From the IMG/VR virus record IMGVR_UViG_3300010285_000002: DNA of 41,407 nucleotides; one strand, written 5' to 3'. A model generated the notes under the pieces. It did no database searches. It was not told the DNA's origin and saw nothing but the letters and a program-made list of their open reading frames with translations. Shown here one piece after another: positions 7,822-38,402 of this stretch (positions are counted from its first letter, which is position 1; every line of letters starts with the position of its first letter). Both the position numbers and the translations under genes were made by a program. The stretch is from a virus.

Positions 7822-8013
7822 ATGAGCAAATATGGTGAAATTAAATCATTTTTAAAAATAGTTTGCCCATATAAATCAAACTTTTGTAACGGGCAAGCGA
7901 TTAAGACAGAAAAAACAGTAGACAGAGAACCTTGTAGATTCTACAGAGGTGGCAAATGTAGACATCTGTTGAATCCAAAGAACATGAGGCAATTGCAAAA
8001 GAAAACTCCATGA
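7822..8013 (+). CDS. hypothetical Cys-containing protein (63 aa)
   Basis: ATG 7822 follows a TAGGAGTG RBS. The track start at 7801 is a TTG with no RBS. Confidence 0.5.
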   Translation: MSKYGEIKSFLKIVCPYKSNFCNGQAIKTEKTVDREPCRFYRGGKCRHLLNPKNMRQLQKKTP

Positions 8014-8027
8014 ATGGAGGGATACAT

Positions 8028-8444
8028 ATGACACAAGAAGAACTTAGTAGGTTGCAGCACATCCAGAAGGAAATTCAAATCATTCAGCAGCAAATCAGCA
8101 ATACAAGTCACTTATCATATCAATATGACAAAGTCAGGGGTTCAGATTCTAATTTCCCTTATACATTACGTTCGTTCACAGTTGAAGGCTATGACTATGA
8201 CGCTTATTATGCAAAGTTAGACAGATTGAACAAAAAGCTTGAACAGAAACTATGTGAATTGATGGACGAAAAAGATAGGTTGAATGATTATATTGAAAGC
8301 GTAGAAGACCCAATCATGAGGATGATTTTGCGATTGAAGCATATGGATGGACTTACATGGAGCCAGATCGGAGACAGAATTGGGTATACTGAGAGACAAT
8401 GCAGACGAAAATATAAGAAATTTTTTGAGAGTAAGAATGTGTAA
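8028..8444 (+). CDS. putative late-gene transcriptional activator (sigma-70 region-4-like; ArpU/RinA/DUF1492-type)
   Basis: C-terminal LTWSQIGDRIGYTERQCRRKYKKF helix-turn-helix. It is the last early gene before the packaging module. ATG 8028 follows GGAGGG. Confidence 0.6.
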   Translation: MTQEELSRLQHIQKEIQIIQQQISNTSHLSYQYDKVRGSDSNFPYTLRSFTVEGYDYDAYYAKLDRLNKKLEQKLCELMDEKDRLNDYIESVEDPIMRMILRLKHMDGLTWSQIGDRIGYTERQCRRKYKKFFESKNV

Positions 8445-8531
8445 AAATGTCCGTCAATGTCCGTTTCTAATGTGTTATATTGGTATTGTGAAAAGTGTAT
8501 TTTACGATACTCCCCTAAATAATATTAGACT

Positions 8532-8557
8532 TAGAGCCATGTAGGCTCTATTTTTTT
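8532..8557 (+). terminator. intrinsic terminator ending the early operon
   Basis: Stem TAGAGCC/GGCTCTA with a 5-nt loop, followed by T7. Confidence 0.7.
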
Positions 8558-8626
8558 ATATCTACATCCTATGTGGCCGGTTCATCAAGAGCCGGCTAAA
8601 CTATTTATGCAAAAAGAGGTGATACC

Positions 8627-24877: not shown

Positions 24878-25633
24878 ATGTTGCAAAAAATAAGATTTAA
24901 AAAATATACATCTTCGGGATTTGTACCAGCAAGGTTAAAAAAGTTTGGATTTGGTACAGATAAAGAAATGAATATAGATGGATTGAAAGCAGAATATTTG
25001 TTTAAAAATAGCTTAGAAGATACAAGTGGGAATGAGTATCATTTGACGCCCATAGGGAATGTTATGTTTAAAAAGGGGTTAGGTGGTTATTGTTTGTATT
25101 ATGAAACACAACAAGTTGGGGCTATTGTACACTCTTCAGAATTAACATCAATCTTTATTGGACGAAAGCCTTATACAGTTTCATTTTGGATTATGCCTAC
25201 TATTTTTAGTCACGAAAATGCTGAAATAATCAAAGTATCTAATGCTTCTGGTGAGGCATCAACCATAAGCATATTTATATTATCAAATGGTATTATACAA
25301 TTTAGAAGGCAACTATTGTGGTCATATAGCGACCTATATTCTACAGAACCATTAAAACTTAATAAATGGCAACATTTTTTATGTGAATACAATGGAACAA
25401 CAATGAAAATTTATATAAATAATAAATTATGTGGTGAATTAGAAAGCACATTATCTGTAACACAGTATGGGATTTTATGGTTTGGGTTAGTTGCTGGGAC
25501 ATATGTTTCTTCACAACCTGGCTATTATGATTCTCTTCGTATTTTTGATAGAATATTAACTGAAAAAGAGAAATTTGAACTTTATAATGAATTTAATTTA
25601 GCTCCTATTAGATTATTTAAATTTATGGTATAA
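24878..25633 (+). CDS. LamG/concanavalin-like lectin-domain protein (putative receptor-binding component)
   Basis: Motifs TVSFWI and SLRIFDRILTEKE are typical of Laminin_G_3-type domains. ATG 24878 follows AGGAGAGAG. Confidence 0.6.
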   Translation: MLQKIRFKKYTSSGFVPARLKKFGFGTDKEMNIDGLKAEYLFKNSLEDTSGNEYHLTPIGNVMFKKGLGGYCLYYETQQVGAIVHSSELTSIFIGRKPYTVSFWIMPTIFSHENAEIIKVSNASGEASTISIFILSNGIIQFRRQLLWSYSDLYSTEPLKLNKWQHFLCEYNGTTMKIYINNKLCGELESTLSVTQYGILWFGLVAGTYVSSQPGYYDSLRIFDRILTEKEKFELYNEFNLAPIRLFKFMV

Positions 25634-25658: not shown

Positions 25659-26312
25659 ATGAAAAAATATATATCAGGATTTATAGTAGGAGTTCTCACA
25701 ACAGTAGGGATAACTGTTTTTGCAGAAGAAGTCAAAAGTTTTATTGCTGAAAAGGCTACTTTTGATGTATACGTTGCAGGCGAAAAATTTGAAAGCGACA
25801 AGCCTGCGGTGGTCATCGATGGCAGTACATATCTGCCTTTAAGAGCCACAGGAGAAGCTTTAGGTGTAAATGTCGAATGGAACGCTGAGAAAAGAAGGGT
25901 GGAGGTTGGAGAAATGAAAGCTACAATATCAGAAGCGACACCAGCATCAACAAAAATACCAACAAATATACCAGTAACAACTCCCGTACCAATGCCACCT
26001 TCTCAAACAAAAGGGGCAGCTCAAAATTGGTATAATTTTAGGTCAGATATAATACCTAATGCAGATGGATTCCCAATGATTACAAAAGATGGTGAGCATT
26101 ATTTGTTATTAAGTTTATTTGGTCAAGATAATATTATATATCCTGAAACAAAAGACGGTTTTTACTCAGTAAAACTTCCAGGGACAGAACCAGTTCAATT
26201 GTCTGAAAATAACACAGTAAAGTATGAAGGAAGGACTTTTGTAAAAGTGTCATCTTTGGGTCTCAAAGCAAGAATAGAAGGTGATACAGCATATATCGAA
26301 TGGGCGGATTAA
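25659..26312 (+). CDS. secreted or membrane-anchored protein with copper-amine-oxidase-N-terminal-like (stalk) domain
   Basis: Signal-like N-terminus MKKYISGFIVGVLTTVGITVFA. Domain motif DGSTYLPLRATGEALGVNVEWNAEKRRVEV. Confidence 0.65.
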   Translation: MKKYISGFIVGVLTTVGITVFAEEVKSFIAEKATFDVYVAGEKFESDKPAVVIDGSTYLPLRATGEALGVNVEWNAEKRRVEVGEMKATISEATPASTKIPTNIPVTTPVPMPPSQTKGAAQNWYNFRSDIIPNADGFPMITKDGEHYLLLSLFGQDNIIYPETKDGFYSVKLPGTEPVQLSENNTVKYEGRTFVKVSSLGLKARIEGDTAYIEWAD

Positions 26313-26313
26313 A

Positions 26314-26337
26314 AGAGAGTAACAACTCTCTTTTTTG
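26314..26337 (+). terminator. intrinsic terminator
   Basis: Stem AGAGAGT/ACTCTCT with loop aaca, followed by T6. Confidence 0.75.
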
Positions 26338-26343
26338 TTATTC

Positions 26344-26373
26344 TTGACAAGATGCAACGATGCATCATAAAAT
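26344..26373 (+). promoter_or_regulatory. sigma-A-type promoter (TTGACA-18-TAAAAT) with GATGCA/GATGCATC repeat in the spacer
   Basis: ttgaca lies at 26344-26349 and taaaat at 26368-26373. Confidence 0.55.
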
Positions 26374-26378
26374 AGATA

Positions 26379-26515
26379 TGCTGTCGGATAGGGACTGCAG
26401 CCTGACAAGTATCTTACCCGAGATACTTCCGACAGCACATTAATCGGGTACCCGATCGGGGAAGGGTGTATATATTACACCGGCCAGAAGAGAGTCAGAA
26501 ATGGCTCTCTTTTTT
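26379..26515 (+). ncRNA. structured leader RNA ending in an intrinsic terminator, upstream of the lysis cassette (riboswitch/attenuator-like or sRNA)
   Basis: 10-bp stem 26379-88/26428-37 encloses a 7-bp hairpin. Overlapping palindromes ATCGGGTACCCGAT and CCCGATCGGG follow, then hairpin GGTGTA/TACACC, then terminator AGAGAGTC/GGCTCTCT plus T5. Confidence 0.45.
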
Positions 26516-26549
26516 GTATGCAAAAATACGGTGTAGAGGAGATGTATAT

Positions 26550-26849
26550 ATGACAATTGAGGTTGCAATAGTGATATCAGGTATATCTCTTGCTTTTGCT
26601 ATCTATTTTGGAGTATCAAATTTAAGAAGAAATCAGAAAGCTGATGACAAAAAAGAAGCAAGCGAATTAACAACAGTTATCGTGAAGTTAGAAAACATCG
26701 GAACTGGAATTACTGAAATTAAATCAGAAATGACTAATGTTAAAAATGATATTAAGGAATCTAGAGAAAGACTTATTAAAGTAGAAGAGTCTGCAAAACA
26801 AGCTCATAAAAGGCTGGATATCTTAGAAAACAAAAGGAAGGATGGTTAA
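26550..26849 (+). CDS. lysis-cassette membrane protein (one N-terminal TM plus coiled coil; XhlA/holin-like)
   Basis: ATG 26550 follows an AGAGGAG RBS. TM segment IEVAIVISGISLAFAIYFGV. The track start at 26466 runs through the terminator. Confidence 0.55.
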   Translation: MTIEVAIVISGISLAFAIYFGVSNLRRNQKADDKKEASELTTVIVKLENIGTGITEIKSEMTNVKNDIKESRERLIKVEESAKQAHKRLDILENKRKDG

Positions 26850-26851
26850 TT

Positions 26852-27190
26852 ATGATGGAAATTATTAAAGATTTTTTAATTGAATACAGGTTTGTTATTG
26901 CAGTTATAGTATGCTTTATTCTTTATTTTTTGTTTGAAAGAGAAAAAGGATATAGCATATTGTATAATCTGATGTTGCAAGCAAAACGATTAGCAAAAGA
27001 CGCAATTTTGAAGTCAGGTCAACAGCAAGAGGATTGGGTTGTAGAAAAGGCGATGTATTTATTGCCAGTTTCTTGGAAAGTGTTCATAACAGAAACTAAA
27101 GTACGGAAAATAATTAAATGGTTATTTCACAAAGGGAAAGATCTAATTGACGATGGGAAATTGAATGATTCCTGGGGGAATGACCTATGA
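26852..27190 (+). CDS. putative holin / membrane protein
   Basis: N-terminal TM segment FVIAVIVCFILYFLF. Directly precedes the endolysin with an ATGA overlap. Confidence 0.5.
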   Translation: MMEIIKDFLIEYRFVIAVIVCFILYFLFEREKGYSILYNLMLQAKRLAKDAILKSGQQQEDWVVEKAMYLLPVSWKVFITETKVRKIIKWLFHKGKDLIDDGKLNDSWGNDL

Positions 27191-28602
27191 TTAGTAAACC
27201 TAAACCTTATGTTACTGTAGTAACGATACCCAAAAGTCAAATCAAAAATTTAGACATAGCAATGGCTACCGAACCTCTCGAACAAATGCAAAAGGCTTAC
27301 TCAAGATTGGGTAAGCCTGATTTCATGCTCAACGGCGGATTTTTTGATATGAGCAATGGGAAAACTGCCTCTAACCTCATAGACGATGGCGTTGTCAAAG
27401 GGAAAGGATGTAGCGATTTTGGGCTAATAGCAAACGGCAATACCGTGAAGTTCGGTAATATATCAGAAGCCAATTTTGATTTCATCGGTGGAACTCCGGC
27501 ACTGGTCAAGAACGGCAAAGTCGATATAGACCAAAATTATGGAGACAGCTTCAACAATGCTAGGCACCCTAGAAGCGCAGTAGGTGAAAACAAAGACAGC
27601 ATATTCTTAGTTGCTGTGGACGGCCGGAGAACAAATGCACCGGGAATGACATTGAATGAACTAGCCGAATTCATGATATCGATAGGCTGCACCAATGCAA
27701 TCAATCTTGATGGCGGAGGTTCTACTCGATTACTGCATAATGGCCAGCCTATTAACAACCCGACAGAGAATAGGGCAGTAGATAACTTCATATGTGTCTA
27801 CCTGAAAGGACAGACTAGTGGCAAAAAGAAGATATTCATTGACCCTGGACACGGTGGAAGTGATCCGGGGGCGCAAGCAAATGGATTGGTTGAAAAACAG
27901 CTAAATTTAACAGTAGCATTGAAGGTTAAAGAGCTGTTACTCGCTAGAGGCTTCGATGTTAAATTAAGTCGTGAATCAGATGTTTACCTGTCGCTCACCG
28001 AGCGTTGTAATCTAGCGAATAATTGGGGTGCAGATTATTTCATCAGCATTCACCACAACGCCGGCGGAGGCGATGGGTGGGAAATTATACATACAATTCA
28101 TACACATCAGTCAGAAGGTGACGAACTGGCAGAGGCAATTGGGAAGGAATTTACTAAGACTGGACAAAATAAGCGTCGGATTTTCAGTCAAGAATCCCAA
28201 AATTATCCCGGGCAGGATTACTTTACAGTAATTCAAAAAACTAAGATGCCAGCAATTATAACAGAATATGCTTTTCTTGACTCAGATGATTACAAGGCGG
28301 TTGATAGTATTGAAAAACTGTATAGAGAAGCACAAGCAATTGCAGACGGACTATGTGATTATCTTGGAATTGCTGTTACTGATACTACTAATGTTGGTCA
28401 AGAAGTAAAGGAGGTAAATACTGTGAGTTGGGAAGAGAAAAATAAAGAGTTTATAAAAATCGTGCAAAGAACAATAGGTGTTGATGTTGATGGACTTGCT
28501 GGTCCTAAAACAGTATCAGCTTTTGAAACTTACACTAAAAGTAAAGGAAACGAAAATGAGATTAAGCAAGCATGGAAAAAGTTAATGGAATTATTGAATT
28601 AA
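27187..28602 (+). CDS. three-domain endolysin: phosphodiester glycosidase (NAGPA/DUF2233)-like domain, N-acetylmuramoyl-L-alanine amidase (Amidase_3) and PG_binding_1
   Basis: N-terminal domain: NGGFFDM and RSAVGENKDSIFLVAVDGR...AINLDGGGST. Amidase: IFIDPGHGGSDPGA. C-terminus: IGVDVDGLAGPKT. Confidence 0.9.
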   Translation: MISKPKPYVTVVTIPKSQIKNLDIAMATEPLEQMQKAYSRLGKPDFMLNGGFFDMSNGKTASNLIDDGVVKGKGCSDFGLIANGNTVKFGNISEANFDFIGGTPALVKNGKVDIDQNYGDSFNNARHPRSAVGENKDSIFLVAVDGRRTNAPGMTLNELAEFMISIGCTNAINLDGGGSTRLLHNGQPINNPTENRAVDNFICVYLKGQTSGKKKIFIDPGHGGSDPGAQANGLVEKQLNLTVALKVKELLLARGFDVKLSRESDVYLSLTERCNLANNWGADYFISIHHNAGGGDGWEIIHTIHTHQSEGDELAEAIGKEFTKTGQNKRRIFSQESQNYPGQDYFTVIQKTKMPAIITEYAFLDSDDYKAVDSIEKLYREAQAIADGLCDYLGIAVTDTTNVGQEVKEVNTVSWEEKNKEFIKIVQRTIGVDVDGLAGPKTVSAFETYTKSKGNENEIKQAWKKLMELLN

Positions 28603-28778: not shown

Positions 28779-29333
28779 TTAGTGTAAACCAGGACATTCA
28801 ATCAATGTGGGTTTGCAATCTTGCTGAATTTCGTTCCAGCTTGTTTGTACTTCTTGAAGTGTTGCACCATCTTTGATTGCAAGACCTATAATTTCCCAAT
28901 CTTCTGTTTTCCAGTTGCCAGTCATACATGATTGCCAACGTCTTGCATATACATGTATCTTCAATACACCAACTTCTAATGTAAAAGTTTCATCGTACAT
29001 AAATGATATAATATCTCTATATACTTCGTTTTTAAAATTTGGGTCTTCCCAGACCCAAATTTTTTTCTTTGTAATTCCTTGTTCCCATAAAAATTTTCTA
29101 ATTGAATCTTTGGGTGGTATCGGGGGATTCCAAATTGCAACTTTTGGAATTCCTCCCCACATATCTAGGAAGATTCTTTGACCTTTTTCCACATCAAAAA
29201 TCTGTGGCTCTCCACGTTTCCATTCAATTTTTGCAGTACCTTTGCCATTTTCGTTTAAGTTAATAGTAACTCTAGTACTCATTCCGGCCATGTAAGTTTC
29301 TGTTTTTTCAATCAAAAATACTTTTTTAGACAT
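28779..29333 (-). CDS. hypothetical protein (about 184 aa), last gene of the cargo island
   Basis: ORF on the island strand. ATG 29333 lies 8 nt after TAGGAGGAA; ATG 29339 is too close to the RBS. Confidence 0.6.
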   Translation of the reverse strand: MSKKVFLIEKTETYMAGMSTRVTINLNENGKGTAKIEWKRGEPQIFDVEKGQRIFLDMWGGIPKVAIWNPPIPPKDSIRKFLWEQGITKKKIWVWEDPNFKNEVYRDIISFMYDETFTLEVGVLKIHVYARRWQSCMTGNWKTEDWEIIGLAIKDGATLQEVQTSWNEIQQDCKPTLIECPGLH

Positions 29334-29416
29334 ATCCATTTCCTCCTATAAATTTATTCCGGACTTGTGACCGAACTGTAGCATTACCGGCCCGAAGGCC
29401 GTCACTCTGCTTTTGC

Positions 29417-29920
29417 TTAATGCCAAGTATGATAAACAGTGTTGAATTTTTTTCCGTCTGGTTTAATTATTTCTCGCACTATGTCTTTACCGCACTCTTC
29501 GCAGTCTATGAGATACCTTCTTATCTCTTGTGCATAACCTGTTCTTTTTGCTTCGGACAAGGCTTCTTCTTCTGTTTTCTGTTTTCTTTGAACTGGCTTA
29601 ACCATATCGCTTAAAGGCATTTCAAATTTTTCTATTTCGTTTACATGAGAAAGTCTCTTGTTTTCAAATGTATTAAAGAACCATCCAGAGAGATTACCTA
29701 TACTATCGACTAATACAAGTTCTATTGCTTTCCTGATAATTAATTCATCTATTGATGATGTCGTTACTCCAAGAGCTTTAAATTCTTCAGTTTCAATAGC
29801 AAGAGTTGGAGTATAATACGGCTTTGCCCATCCTTCAGCTACAAATTCCACATTTCTTTTCCCTTCAATCAGTTCCTGAACAATACCATTAATTTTTTCC
29901 TTAGCCTCTTTACTTAACAT
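29417..29920 (-). CDS. hypothetical protein (167 aa) with C-terminal CEEC..H.WH motif
   Basis: Strong RBS GAGGGAGGA. First gene behind the second island promoter. Confidence 0.65.
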   Translation of the reverse strand: MLSKEAKEKINGIVQELIEGKRNVEFVAEGWAKPYYTPTLAIETEEFKALGVTTSSIDELIIRKAIELVLVDSIGNLSGWFFNTFENKRLSHVNEIEKFEMPLSDMVKPVQRKQKTEEEALSEAKRTGYAQEIRRYLIDCEECGKDIVREIIKPDGKKFNTVYHTWH

Positions 29921-36368: not shown

Positions 36369-36416
36369 ATTGTGACATTATTGTGACATTTCTGTTTTCT
36401 CCGATTTTTGTGACAT
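36369..36416 (+). repeat. three direct (A)TTGTGACAT(T) repeats, candidate integrase arm-type sites (right arm)
   Basis: Copies at 36369-79, 36380-90 and 36408-16. They overlap the 3' end of int. Confidence 0.5.
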
Positions 36417-37487
36417 GAATACTAAATTATCAATATTGGTACTTGCTTTCTTAATTAATGTTTTATTGTTATGGAGATAAGTATCTGAAGTAATACCTAT
36501 TTTGCTATGACCAAGCAACCTTTTTAATGTATCCAGGTCGGTACCGCATTCAAGTTGAAGTACCGCAAATGTATGTCGGAGGTCATGAAATCTACAAGTT
36601 GGAAGATTGTTAGCTTTTTGAAAGTTTTTTAATGCTCTAGATAAATGAGAAGGGTCCGGAAGTTTTCCATCTATTTCACTTACATAGATAGAATTAGCTC
36701 TTTTTTTATGCTCTTTTAATTCTTCAGCCAAAAAACCTTCTATAGAAAATATTCTTTCAGATTCTTTAGTTTTTACTTTCTTATGAATTTCTTTGCCTTC
36801 AACAACAACATAATTATTTCTTACATAAGCAATGTTATTGTTGAAGTCTATATCAGACCAACGTAGCCCCAAGCATTCCCCTCGTCGCAAACCTCGCATA
36901 GCTGCAAGTAATACAGGGATATATAAGTAATGTTTTTGCTCGCGTAAAAGAGAAATAAGTTTTCCTAAGTCTTCAGCAGTATAAACAGATATTTCAAACT
37001 TTTCATTATCTTCTGCTATTTCTACACCTTTACAAACATTTTTCTCTACAAGGTCATTTTTTAAAGCATATTCAAGTGCAGCATGAAGAACTCTACAAAC
37101 GTATTTTACAGTACGATATTTTAATCCAGATTTAGTTAATGTATCTGCCATATTTTGAACATCTATTAATTTTAGTTTCATTAAAGGGATATTACCAATG
37201 TGATTATTTATATGTTGAATATTCGTTTTATACCCACTCAATGTAGTTGGGGAAAGTTTCTTTTCTTTAGTAACAATCCATTTTTCTAAAAATTCTTTAA
37301 CAGTAATGCCGTCAGCACCTTCAGCAAGACCTTCCAGTTTTCTTTTAGTATCAATTCCCCAATCTTCTGCTTCTTTTTTCTTTTCAAAACCCGACTTATA
37401 TTTACTTTTCTTTTTACCATTCTTATAATACCAAAAACGGCACGAATAATATGTTTTCGAGCCGACTTTGTAACTTTTAACTTCCAT
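36378..37487 (-). CDS. int: tyrosine integrase
   Basis: Catalytic motifs RGLRRGE, HDLRHTFA and LGHS...TSDTYLH. Adjacent to the tRNA fragment. Confidence 0.95.
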   Translation of the reverse strand: MEVKSYKVGSKTYYSCRFWYYKNGKKKSKYKSGFEKKKEAEDWGIDTKRKLEGLAEGADGITVKEFLEKWIVTKEKKLSPTTLSGYKTNIQHINNHIGNIPLMKLKLIDVQNMADTLTKSGLKYRTVKYVCRVLHAALEYALKNDLVEKNVCKGVEIAEDNEKFEISVYTAEDLGKLISLLREQKHYLYIPVLLAAMRGLRRGECLGLRWSDIDFNNNIAYVRNNYVVVEGKEIHKKVKTKESERIFSIEGFLAEELKEHKKRANSIYVSEIDGKLPDPSHLSRALKNFQKANNLPTCRFHDLRHTFAVLQLECGTDLDTLKRLLGHSKIGITSDTYLHNNKTLIKKASTNIDNLVFMSQKSEKTEMSQ

Positions 37488-37836
37488 TATCATTACCTCC
37501 TAATCTTTTTATGAAATTTAATACTAAATCAAGATCCGAATCATTTAAATTAGCTATTAATGGCAAAGCTTTTTGAACTTTATAATTGTTAAGTATTTTA
37601 TTAACCAATTCTTGGGCATCACTTTCCATTTGTTTAGGGTTGTCCCAACCTAATAGCCAGTTTGCATCTACTTCAAGTGCCCCTAGTAACAATTCAATTG
37701 TATCAGCATAAGGCATATTTTTATCATTTTCCCAATCACTTATAGAATTATGTTTTACACCTATTAAATCAGCTAATTGTCTTTGTGTTAATCCTTTTTT
37801 TAGTCTAGCTTCTTTGATTCTTTTACCTAAGCTCAT
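37477..37836 (-). CDS. CI-like repressor (XRE-family HTH, no peptidase domain)
   Basis: LTQRQLADLIGVKHNSISDWEN motif. Divergent from the cro-like gene. Confidence 0.85.
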   Translation of the reverse strand: MSLGKRIKEARLKKGLTQRQLADLIGVKHNSISDWENDKNMPYADTIELLLGALEVDANWLLGWDNPKQMESDAQELVNKILNNYKVQKALPLIANLNDSDLDLVLNFIKRLGGNDNGS

Positions 37837-37863
37837 TTTAATAATTCCCCACCTTTCAATTTT

Positions 37864-37892
37864 ATATTAGCACGCAATTTCGATTTTGTAAA
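37864..37892 (-). promoter_or_regulatory. candidate repressor-maintenance promoter (TTTACA-17-TAATAT)
   Basis: Read on the minus strand upstream of the repressor RBS AAAGGTGGGG. Confidence 0.4.
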
Positions 37893-37901
37893 TATTTTGT
37901 T

Positions 37902-37974
37902 TTCGAAAATTTCGAAAATCATATTGACAATTCGAAAATTTCGAAATATAATAAAATTGTTCGAAGATTTCGAA
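37902..37974. promoter_or_regulatory. three operators TTCGAAnATTTCGAA spaced 29 bp apart
   Basis: Operators at 37902-16, 37931-45 and 37960-74. Each contains two TTCGAA palindromes. Confidence 0.65.
37924..37952 (+). promoter_or_regulatory. early lytic promoter with perfect consensus (TTGACA-17-TATAAT) and operator O2 in the spacer
   Basis: ttgaca lies at 37924-29 and tataat at 37947-52. Confidence 0.75.
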
Positions 37975-38012
37975 ATCCGGATTTCAACCCGCAATTCTAG
38001 GAGGTATCAATT

Positions 38013-38228
38013 ATGGGAGTCGGTTCTGAAATTAAGCAATTCTTAGATGAAAATAATATCAGCCAGACGACACTTTCTATTGAAACTAAAATTCCCCTTC
38101 CAAAACTTAATCTAATGCTAAATGAGAAAAGGAGAATTCAAATACCTGAATTAGAAGTTATATGTTGGGCTCTTAATGTAAAACCTGATAAGTTTGTTAA
38201 ACCAAGAGCCCCAGGGAAGGTGGTTTAA
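38013..38228 (+). CDS. Cro-like XRE-family HTH regulator
   Basis: ISQTTLSIETKIPLPKLNLMLNEKR motif. Divergent from the repressor. RBS is TAGGAGGT. Confidence 0.75.
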   Translation: MGVGSEIKQFLDENNISQTTLSIETKIPLPKLNLMLNEKRRIQIPELEVICWALNVKPDKFVKPRAPGKVV

Positions 38229-38402
38229 ATGGAAAAAACATTTCTCAAAGTTAAAGAAGCAACAAAGTTGTATAGCATCGGAAGAGATACGCTTTATAAC
38301 GCAATAAAAAAAGGTGAACTAAAAGCTTATAAACCTAATTGTAGAGATTATCTTATCAAAGTCACAGAATTAGAAGCTTGGATTCAAAGTAAACCTGTCT
38401 AA
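38229..38402 (+). CDS. excisionase-family HTH protein (57 aa), below the track cutoff
   Basis: FLKVKEATKLYSIGRDTLYNAIKKGELKAYK...ELEAWI is typical of MerR-like excisionase HTH_17 proteins. Confidence 0.6.
   Translation: MEKTFLKVKEATKLYSIGRDTLYNAIKKGELKAYKPNCRDYLIKVTELEAWIQSKPV

Follow-up and report, generated by a model that had tools for sequence, protein, structure and literature searches.

Morons of temperate phages are inserted units of promoter, cargo, and terminator whose flanking genes stand side by side in related phages. Small RNAs (sRNAs) of the RsaE/RoxS type, found in Firmicutes, are compact and terminator-ended, and they carry C-rich loops that pair with G-rich sites. In Stx phages, the short PR′-tR′ transcript is described as a working sRNA called StxS (PMC7547250). 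In the alpBCDE locus of Pseudomonas aeruginosa, the small winged-helix antiterminator AlpA has its site between the −35 and −10 hexamers of the PalpB promoter (PMC7969949). Here we analyzed positions 26338 to 26549 of the viral record IMGVR_UViG_3300010285_000002, a stretch of 41,407 nucleotides (nt) that is called the window below. In this element, a promoter and a structured leader ending in an intrinsic terminator stand directly before the lysis cassette. A first-pass annotation, made from the letters and a list of reading frames, proposed that the leader is a riboswitch, an attenuator, or an antitermination target, or else a stand-alone sRNA. Our results favor the last of these readings: with a probability of about one half, we are dealing with an independent small-RNA gene (an "RNA moron") that runs from its promoter to its terminator at the junction of the tail and lysis genes, and not with a switch of the lysis genes.

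With lambda PR′-6S-tR′ and StxS (PMC7547250), the element shares a strong promoter, a short structured RNA, and an intrinsic terminator that immediately precedes lysis genes; termination yields a separate small RNA in those systems and is predicted to do so here. It differs from them in the lack of a Q gene among the genes scanned and in its place, which is where the tail genes end and not where the late operon begins. Neither sequence nor fold is alike, the RNA body is an optional insert, and the host would be a Gram-positive anaerobe. The alpBCDE locus also combines a promoter with a spacer element, an intrinsic terminator, and lysis genes, but its spacer element is the ABE motif GGGACG-N5-GGTA (PMC7969949), whereas here it is a palindrome of changing sequence. 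Moreover, the AlpA leader has no structured RNA of this kind, and the HTH_17 protein encoded in the window is only a candidate counterpart of AlpA.

In HK022 putL and putR, a folded RNA likewise comes right after the promoter and ahead of terminators; by inspection, however, put is made of two stem-loops, in contrast to the three-way junction and tail of the element. Like morons, the element brings along a promoter and a terminator, is found in some sister phages and missing in others between identical flanking genes, occupies the slot between tail and lysis genes, and lies beside a protein-coding moron. Unlike the usual ones, it has a non-coding structured RNA as cargo, and its terminator is shared with, or duplicated from, a pre-existing one. 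The resemblance to the RsaE/RoxS type would lie in a compact terminator-ended RNA with a repeated C-rich motif (ACCCG, twice) in loop and linker, but there is no homology (the Rfam search was negative), and the C-rich loop has an internal G-rich partner here.

Promoter, fold, and terminators of the element

All the parts listed in the first-pass annotation were recovered by sequence reading, scans, and folding at, or within a few bases of, the positions that it gave. The promoter, TTGACA-18-TAAAAT (26344–26373, + strand), is of the sigma-70/sigmaA type and agrees with the consensus at 11 of 12 positions. The hexamers TTGACA and TAAAAT/TAACAT were kept in all RNA-bearing loci of related phages and also in empty frames, which have the promoter and the terminator without the RNA; a conserved AGAT comes after them. 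Between the hexamers, four unrelated spacers of 15–18 nt occur in the loci compared (the window, L083, L097/L098/L105, L124, and L129): one of 18 nt with GATGCA-N4-TGCATC, one of 15 nt with GA(C/T)GC-CTA-GCGTC, and two of 17 nt, the first reading AATTGTTGAATGCATCA and the second having the palindrome TGACGTCA at its end. The spacer is palindromic in three of the four promoter types, with differing sequence and length, and L124 has no palindrome within it. The promoter that the first-pass annotation had proposed is thus real, and hexamers conserved over freely varying spacers argue that it is a working one of the host type.

The repeats that had been described in the spacer of the window are present, but as a single inverted repeat, GATGCA-ACGA-TGCATC (26351–26366), and not as direct repeats; it is unique in the window. 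A role as CI/Cro operator was considered for this palindrome and ruled out, because the immunity region uses TTCGAAA repeats and the palindrome occurs only once in the window. At the late promoter region (8440–8620), no motif resembling it was found.

The region from 26370 to 26525 folds with −58.5 kcal/mol (RNAfold), against −37.2 ± 3.8 kcal/mol for shuffled sequences (z = −5.6); none of 200 shuffles was as good, and a second fold z-score was −4.3. The 5′ domain (26379–26437, +) is a three-way junction of the helices P1, P1a, and P2. P1 pairs 26379–88 with 26428–37, within extended repeat arms at 26376–88 and 26428–40. P1a, a short hairpin within 26389–26404 that was judged by eye, has 2–5 base pairs (bp), and its sequence differs in each of the four RNA types found in relatives. 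P2, the inner hairpin to which 7 bp had been attributed, has 8 bp (26407–14 with 26421–28) and carries the loop UACCCG (26415–20). The domain is followed by a conserved 3′ tail (26445–26481, +) that starts with the universal CGGGTRCCCGATCG (26445–58), continues with GAAGGG, and ends in P4, a hairpin GGUGUA/UACACC (26465–70 with 26476–81) with an invariant stem and a loop of UAUAU, UUAAU, or GAU. As read from the sequence, the P2 loop UACCCGA (26415–21) may also pair with UCGGGUA (26444–50), which would give a pseudoknot of 7 bp in the window.

A covariance model made from the window sequence alone aligned the remaining types to the same architecture. Covariation was computed on five distinct sequences, and the E-values of the models are rough. 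Standard pairing occurred in 94.8% of the alignment cells; 13 pairs (24 cells) had changed on both sides, compared with 1–4 pairs when the partners were slid by 1–3 columns, and the observed covariation score was reached by none of 500 shuffles. The two-sided changes fell on 8 of the 13 pairs of P1 and on 5 of the 6 pairs of P2, which was 100% paired with up to three pair types per position. Invariant in all types were the GA before P2, the P2 loop (U/A)ACCCG(A/G), the sequence CGGGURCCCGAUCG followed by GAAGGG, and the P4 stem; the constant parts of the RNA are unpaired or 3′-terminal sequence. The element thus has a conserved, sensor-like structured domain with conserved unpaired bases. These data indicate that the structured leader is a real and evolutionarily maintained RNA under selection for its own fold, in agreement with the first-pass annotation.

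The five core pairs of the pseudoknot, ACCCG:CGGGU, are invariant in all types, so that covariation neither supports nor contradicts them. A flanking pair, A-U in the window and G-C in L083, is a possible compensation at a place where the alignment is ambiguous. Because the core pairs give no test by covariation, we grade the pseudoknot between the ACCCG of the P2 loop and the downstream CGGGU as probable. Of the two palindromes that had been called mutually exclusive, ATCGGGTACCCGAT (26443–56) and CCCGATCGGG (26451–60), both can be read in the window, but the pairing of CCCGATCGGG is broken in types 2 and 3; the counterpart in relatives reads CGTGG or CGGCG. The region has no conserved open reading frame (ORF). 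An in-frame GTG at 26466 was considered as an extended start of the first lysis gene and discarded, given an immediate stop in L124.

The 3′ end of the RNA is formed by the terminator T2 (+), a 12-bp stem with a GAAA loop (26486–26513) and a U-run to 26515, which a simple terminator scan missed because the U-run lies partly inside the stem. Its predicted pair probability is 0.999 both in the window and in L083. When the 3′ arm was blocked, the 5′ arm remained without a partner, at a cost of 15.7 kcal/mol in the window and 14.8 kcal/mol in L083. In these folding predictions T2 is unconditional, and the RNA cannot influence it by pairing; the alternative pairings that were proposed to gate the terminator found no competing partner. 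The terminator scan gave a further terminator, T1, with a 10-bp stem (26311–26334, +) and a T-run to 26339, which is missing in RNA types 3 and 4 (L124, L129). In a repeat search, T1 and T2 were partial direct repeats (27 nt, 70% identity; T2 copy at 26488–26514).

The ribosome-binding site (RBS) GAGGAG of the first lysis gene (26536–41, +) lies 20 nt 3′ of T2, and the start codon is at 26550. The RBS and the start codon are predicted to pair with the intragenic segment 26585–95 (RBS unpaired probability 0.16); this pairing also forms without the leader and may be a translational brake. A pairing of P4 with the CGGUGUA that comes after T2 was rejected, since this motif is part of the lysis translation start and is equally present in the RNA-less loci L122 and L123.

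Occurrence of the RNA and states of the slot

The RNA-bearing contigs were reached by exact-protein look-ups of two neighbouring genes in digester and manure phages, and the RNA family is known from a handful of these. They hold four deeply diverged RNA types with the same fold: type 1 in the window, L082, L101, and L102; type 2 in L083, L091–93, L100, and L103–108; type 3 in L124–126; and type 4 in L129. All four lie directly downstream of a homolog of the accessory gene that precedes the element in the window, and 8 of the 12 lineages of this gene are without the RNA. In some phage contigs of other runs the flanks are near-identical, but 26378–26444 is replaced by 66 other letters. The RNA precedes three different first lysis genes, and the same downstream lysis genes are found with it (L129) and without it (L123). 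The element was absent in 80 IMG/VR loci in which the product of the first lysis gene has a relative (amino acid identities reached 86%), and the covariance models R1 and R2 found no more members over about 70 loci.

The slot between the accessory and lysis genes may contain a single terminator. It may also contain T1, the promoter, 13 nt, and T2 (L097), or the same frame without T1 (L098/L099, which have a myovirus-like backbone that shares with the window phage only a weak tape-measure match). The RNA is found in the order T1, promoter, RNA, and T2 in types 1 and 2, and in the order promoter, RNA, and T2, without T1, in types 3 and 4. A further state, with T1, an ORF for 52 hydrophobic amino acids, a promoter remnant, and T2, was found in L084. 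The ORF, in the segment 2170–2400 of L084, has the RBS AAGGAGG, a TTG start, and a charged C-terminus. On one side it has a T1-like terminator and on the other the promoter remnant, from which the −35 hexamer is missing; it could be a small membrane toxin or a holin-like cargo.

With its own promoter and terminator, the element is inserted between genes that are joined by a single terminator in L081, L085, L094, L095, L122, and L123. These six loci have a T2-like terminator followed by the same GTATGCAAAAA between the accessory and lysis genes, with neither promoter nor RNA, and the comparison shows that T2 predates the RNA at this site. In the window the RNA is flanked by the direct terminator repeats T1 and T2. 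The distribution of these states shows that phages acquire, lose, and swap the cassette; recombination between the flanking terminator copies would be an obvious way for the insert to come and go.

A terminator before the lysis genes, which the first-pass annotation regarded as unusual, proved to be common: 34 of the 63 distinct upstream regions of relatives had a strong GC-rich hairpin with a T-run at most 130 nt before the start of the first lysis gene, mostly 23–41 nt before the start codon and in about nine cases at 74–94 nt. A terminator just before the lysis cassette is thus the ordinary state in this phage group, and late transcription must cross it. L038, L040, and L055 have a second conserved hairpin (TAGGGGGTAT...ATACCCCCGA) about 60–110 nt upstream of the first lysis gene and before the terminator, which could be another leader element.

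Database searches gave no described relative of the RNA. At gathering thresholds, Rfam 15 recognized only Twister-P5 in the whole window, elsewhere than the element. At E ≤ 10, the segment 26200–26700 gave only chance-level matches (FsrA, 17.5 bits vs. a threshold of 80; SNORA26; S15 leader, 12 vs. 39.5). A BLAST search of the element against 50,697 phage records returned only a 29-nt match to T2 in MT835533.1, in an unrelated context, and exact and degenerate pattern scans of IMG/VR returned only the empty frame of L098/L099. A scan of JGI metagenomes and GTDB genomes with a pattern of P4 plus T2 gave chance matches only, the pattern being so strict that types 3 and 4 would escape it. The universal 14-mer had two chance matches in 401 sampled Clostridia genomes, neither of them the RNA. 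The RNA therefore appears to represent an undescribed family that is absent from Rfam.

Small-RNA gene or control of the lysis genes

A fold selected for itself, the optional presence of the RNA, and the lack of pairing with T2 make a promoter-to-terminator small-RNA gene the simplest model, which is the stand-alone sRNA that the first-pass annotation gave as an alternative. Transcription would start at about 26379–81 from the element's own promoter and stop at T2, yielding a discrete RNA of about 136 nt. This RNA would accumulate as a product, like lambda 6S RNA or StxS from PR′-tR′, and would not serve as a sensor that opens T2. Its C-rich loop and tail, which are conserved and partly exposed, and its elaborate junction suggest that it would act in trans, possibly by pairing of the exposed conserved tail and loop with G-rich sites, or alternatively by binding a protein or a ligand through the junction and the pseudoknot. 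Its expression would probably take place in the prophage state, as for the neighbouring accessory gene. Contigs of a soil metatranscriptome (X20) covered 26084–26307 of that gene with identical sequence and left the RNA region uncovered, a missing cover that is uninformative for a short RNA in assembled contigs.

Several observations weigh against an sRNA gene. The frame of promoter and T2 occurs without the RNA directly before the holin gene in two otherwise unrelated backbones (L097; L098/L099), which agrees better with a frame for the control of lysis than with an sRNA gene. In every case the unit points in the same direction as the lysis genes and T2 lies 20–40 nt before them, and the palindromes of differing sequence in three of the four promoter spacers hint at a bound factor. 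A three-way junction with a pseudoknot would be more elaborate than typical base-pairing sRNAs. Outside the element itself, the phage has no complement of at least 10 nt to the RNA, and no significant duplex was found with its neighbouring translation-start regions. Finally, all the RNA loci were found via the moron gene, so the link between the RNA and this gene is partly a sampling effect.

The empty frames also belong to the explanation that we rank second, as a tentative one: that the promoter and T2 are the lysis cassette's own control frame, similar to that of lambda PR′/Q or to that of AlpA. T2 would stop transcription in the lysogen, and in late infection a phage factor loaded at the promoter through the spacer site would make RNA polymerase resistant to the terminator. 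The structured RNA would then be an insert in the terminated leader, a 6S-like by-product, possibly with a second job. For both Q and AlpA, the binding site lies between the −35 and −10 hexamers, and a terminator and lysis genes come after the promoter (PMC7969949), and a promoter, a closely following intrinsic terminator, and then lysis genes are found both in the window and in the empty frames of L097–L099. In L097 and in L098/L099 the series TTGACA-15-TAACAT, 13 nt, T2, RBS, and holin is the same, so that the frame travels with the holin. The changes in the palindromic spacers are symmetric (GATGCA..TGCATC, GACGC..GCGTC, TGACGTCA), and the window encodes a protein of 57 amino acids with an HTH_17 domain (38229–38402), although its gene is most simply that of an excisionase. 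However, the scanned genes of the early and late regions gave no Q-family match, the spacer element is conserved in neither sequence nor length (with a non-palindromic spacer in L124), and the palindrome occurs once in the window and is unlike the TTCGAAA operators of the immunity region. A promoter serving the lysis genes would more simply lie downstream of T2. In the majority of relatives the lysis genes are preceded by the terminator alone, with no promoter, so late transcription must get past such terminators in any case and a dedicated promoter is unneeded. The failure to find a Q-like gene among those scanned, the variable spacer, and the promoterless relatives are what places this explanation behind the sRNA gene.

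The other explanations give the RNA body itself a part in passing T2 or in the upstream transcript. We think it unlikely that the junction, pseudoknot, and tail form a new class of RNA that binds a ligand, a protein, or polymerase and decides the passage of T2 from its own promoter. Such an RNA would trigger lysis in a put-like or factor-dependent manner, and phages of anaerobic Firmicutes could insert it into a generic frame of promoter and terminator ahead of their lysis cassette. Quite improbable is a 3′-untranslated region of the upstream accessory gene that would stabilize its mRNA or serve RNase processing. All four RNA types do adjoin homologs of this gene, and in L124 and L129, which have no T1, its transcript must run through the RNA to T2; but each copy of the RNA has a conserved near-consensus promoter before it, a strong T1 separates gene and RNA in the window and in L083, and the majority of the accessory-gene lineages lack the RNA. 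We give still less credit to a cis-acting RNA like put of HK022 that makes its own polymerase ignore T2 and reach the lysis genes. Its position immediately after the start site and before the terminator and lysis genes, its covariation-supported structure with conserved unpaired bases, and the existence of RNA-less frames, in which such an RNA could turn a dead end into a working lysis promoter, would all suit this role. Against it stand the lack of likeness to put in sequence or shape, the lysis cassettes of sister phages that manage without the RNA (L123 vs. L129), and the consequence that a near-consensus promoter with constitutive read-through would turn the lysis genes on in the lysogen unless tightly shut, a control for which nothing was found. 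Least probable of all is a riboswitch, or a protein- or tRNA-dependent attenuator, by which lysis would be timed through the switching of T2. The layout of a structured domain, a terminator, and then genes is the expected one, and aptamers likewise have junctions, pseudoknots, and conserved bases in their loops. Yet there is no antiterminator, as neither arm of T2 can find a partner elsewhere in the RNA; relatives do not keep the overlapping palindrome CCCGATCGGG; T2 existed before the RNA and does not depend on it; Rfam gave no match even at the permissive threshold; and the element is not tied to its downstream genes, as seen in L129 and L123 and in the three different first lysis genes. The folding test of T2 refutes a riboswitch in the classical form, and in these predictions both it and a put-like RNA would be possible only in non-classical forms.

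Small RNAs of phages of anaerobic Firmicutes are almost unexplored. The RNA described here is compact, has clear covariation support, and lies outside Rfam, and a comparison of sister phages finds its cassette vacant, occupied, or replaced. Should the RNA act in trans, lysogenic conversion would have a new factor that consists of RNA; should it act in cis, phages would have a further, new means to time lysis. The rule of a strong terminator right before the lysis genes in this phage group also raises the question of how late transcription crosses it.

Source phage and neighbouring genes

The source phage is a temperate siphophage of about 41 kb from an anaerobic digester, and its DNA is present in bioreactor, anaerobic-digester, and manure metagenomes; we infer that its host is a Gram-positive anaerobe. 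A late regulator (DUF1492/PHROG 36, 8010–8444) is followed in the gene list by an HNH endonuclease and the small terminase (9096). The gene order around the element is tail genes, accessory gene, T1, RNA element, and lysis cassette. The tail genes finish at 25633. The accessory moron gene (25659–26312, +) encodes 217 amino acids with a Cu_amine_oxidN1 stalk domain (Pfam PF07833, E = 6.9e-13), and about 44 homologs of its protein were found, mostly from digester and manure assemblies. A promoter-like site at 25560–25588 belongs to this gene, which ends in T1.

The first lysis gene (26550–26849, +; PHROG 1863) encodes 99 amino acids, with a membrane anchor at the N-terminus and a coiled-coil region. 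It is followed by the gene of a 112-amino-acid protein with a single membrane span (26852–27190, +), a possible holin without a family match, and by that of an endolysin with NAGPA and Amidase_3 domains (27187–28602, +).

The lysogeny genes comprise an integrase (36378–37493), a helix-turn-helix (HTH) repressor (37477–37836), and the Cro-like and HTH_17 genes (38013–38402). Between the divergent repressor and Cro-like genes, the immunity region (37850–37990) has operator-like repeats of the type TTTCGAAAATTTCGAAA. The HTH_17 gene (+ strand; E = 1.2e-12) lies directly 3′ of the Cro-like gene; its product is probably an excisionase, as the simplest reading, and is the sole small winged-helix candidate in the window for an AlpA-like role.

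The Twister-P5 match in the window is a twister ribozyme of type P5 on the minus strand (29359–29411; RF02684, 56.3 bits vs. a gathering score of 37.6, E = 3.3e-9). Genes of the same strand, both with unknown functions, flank it on either side (28779–29339 and 29417–29920).

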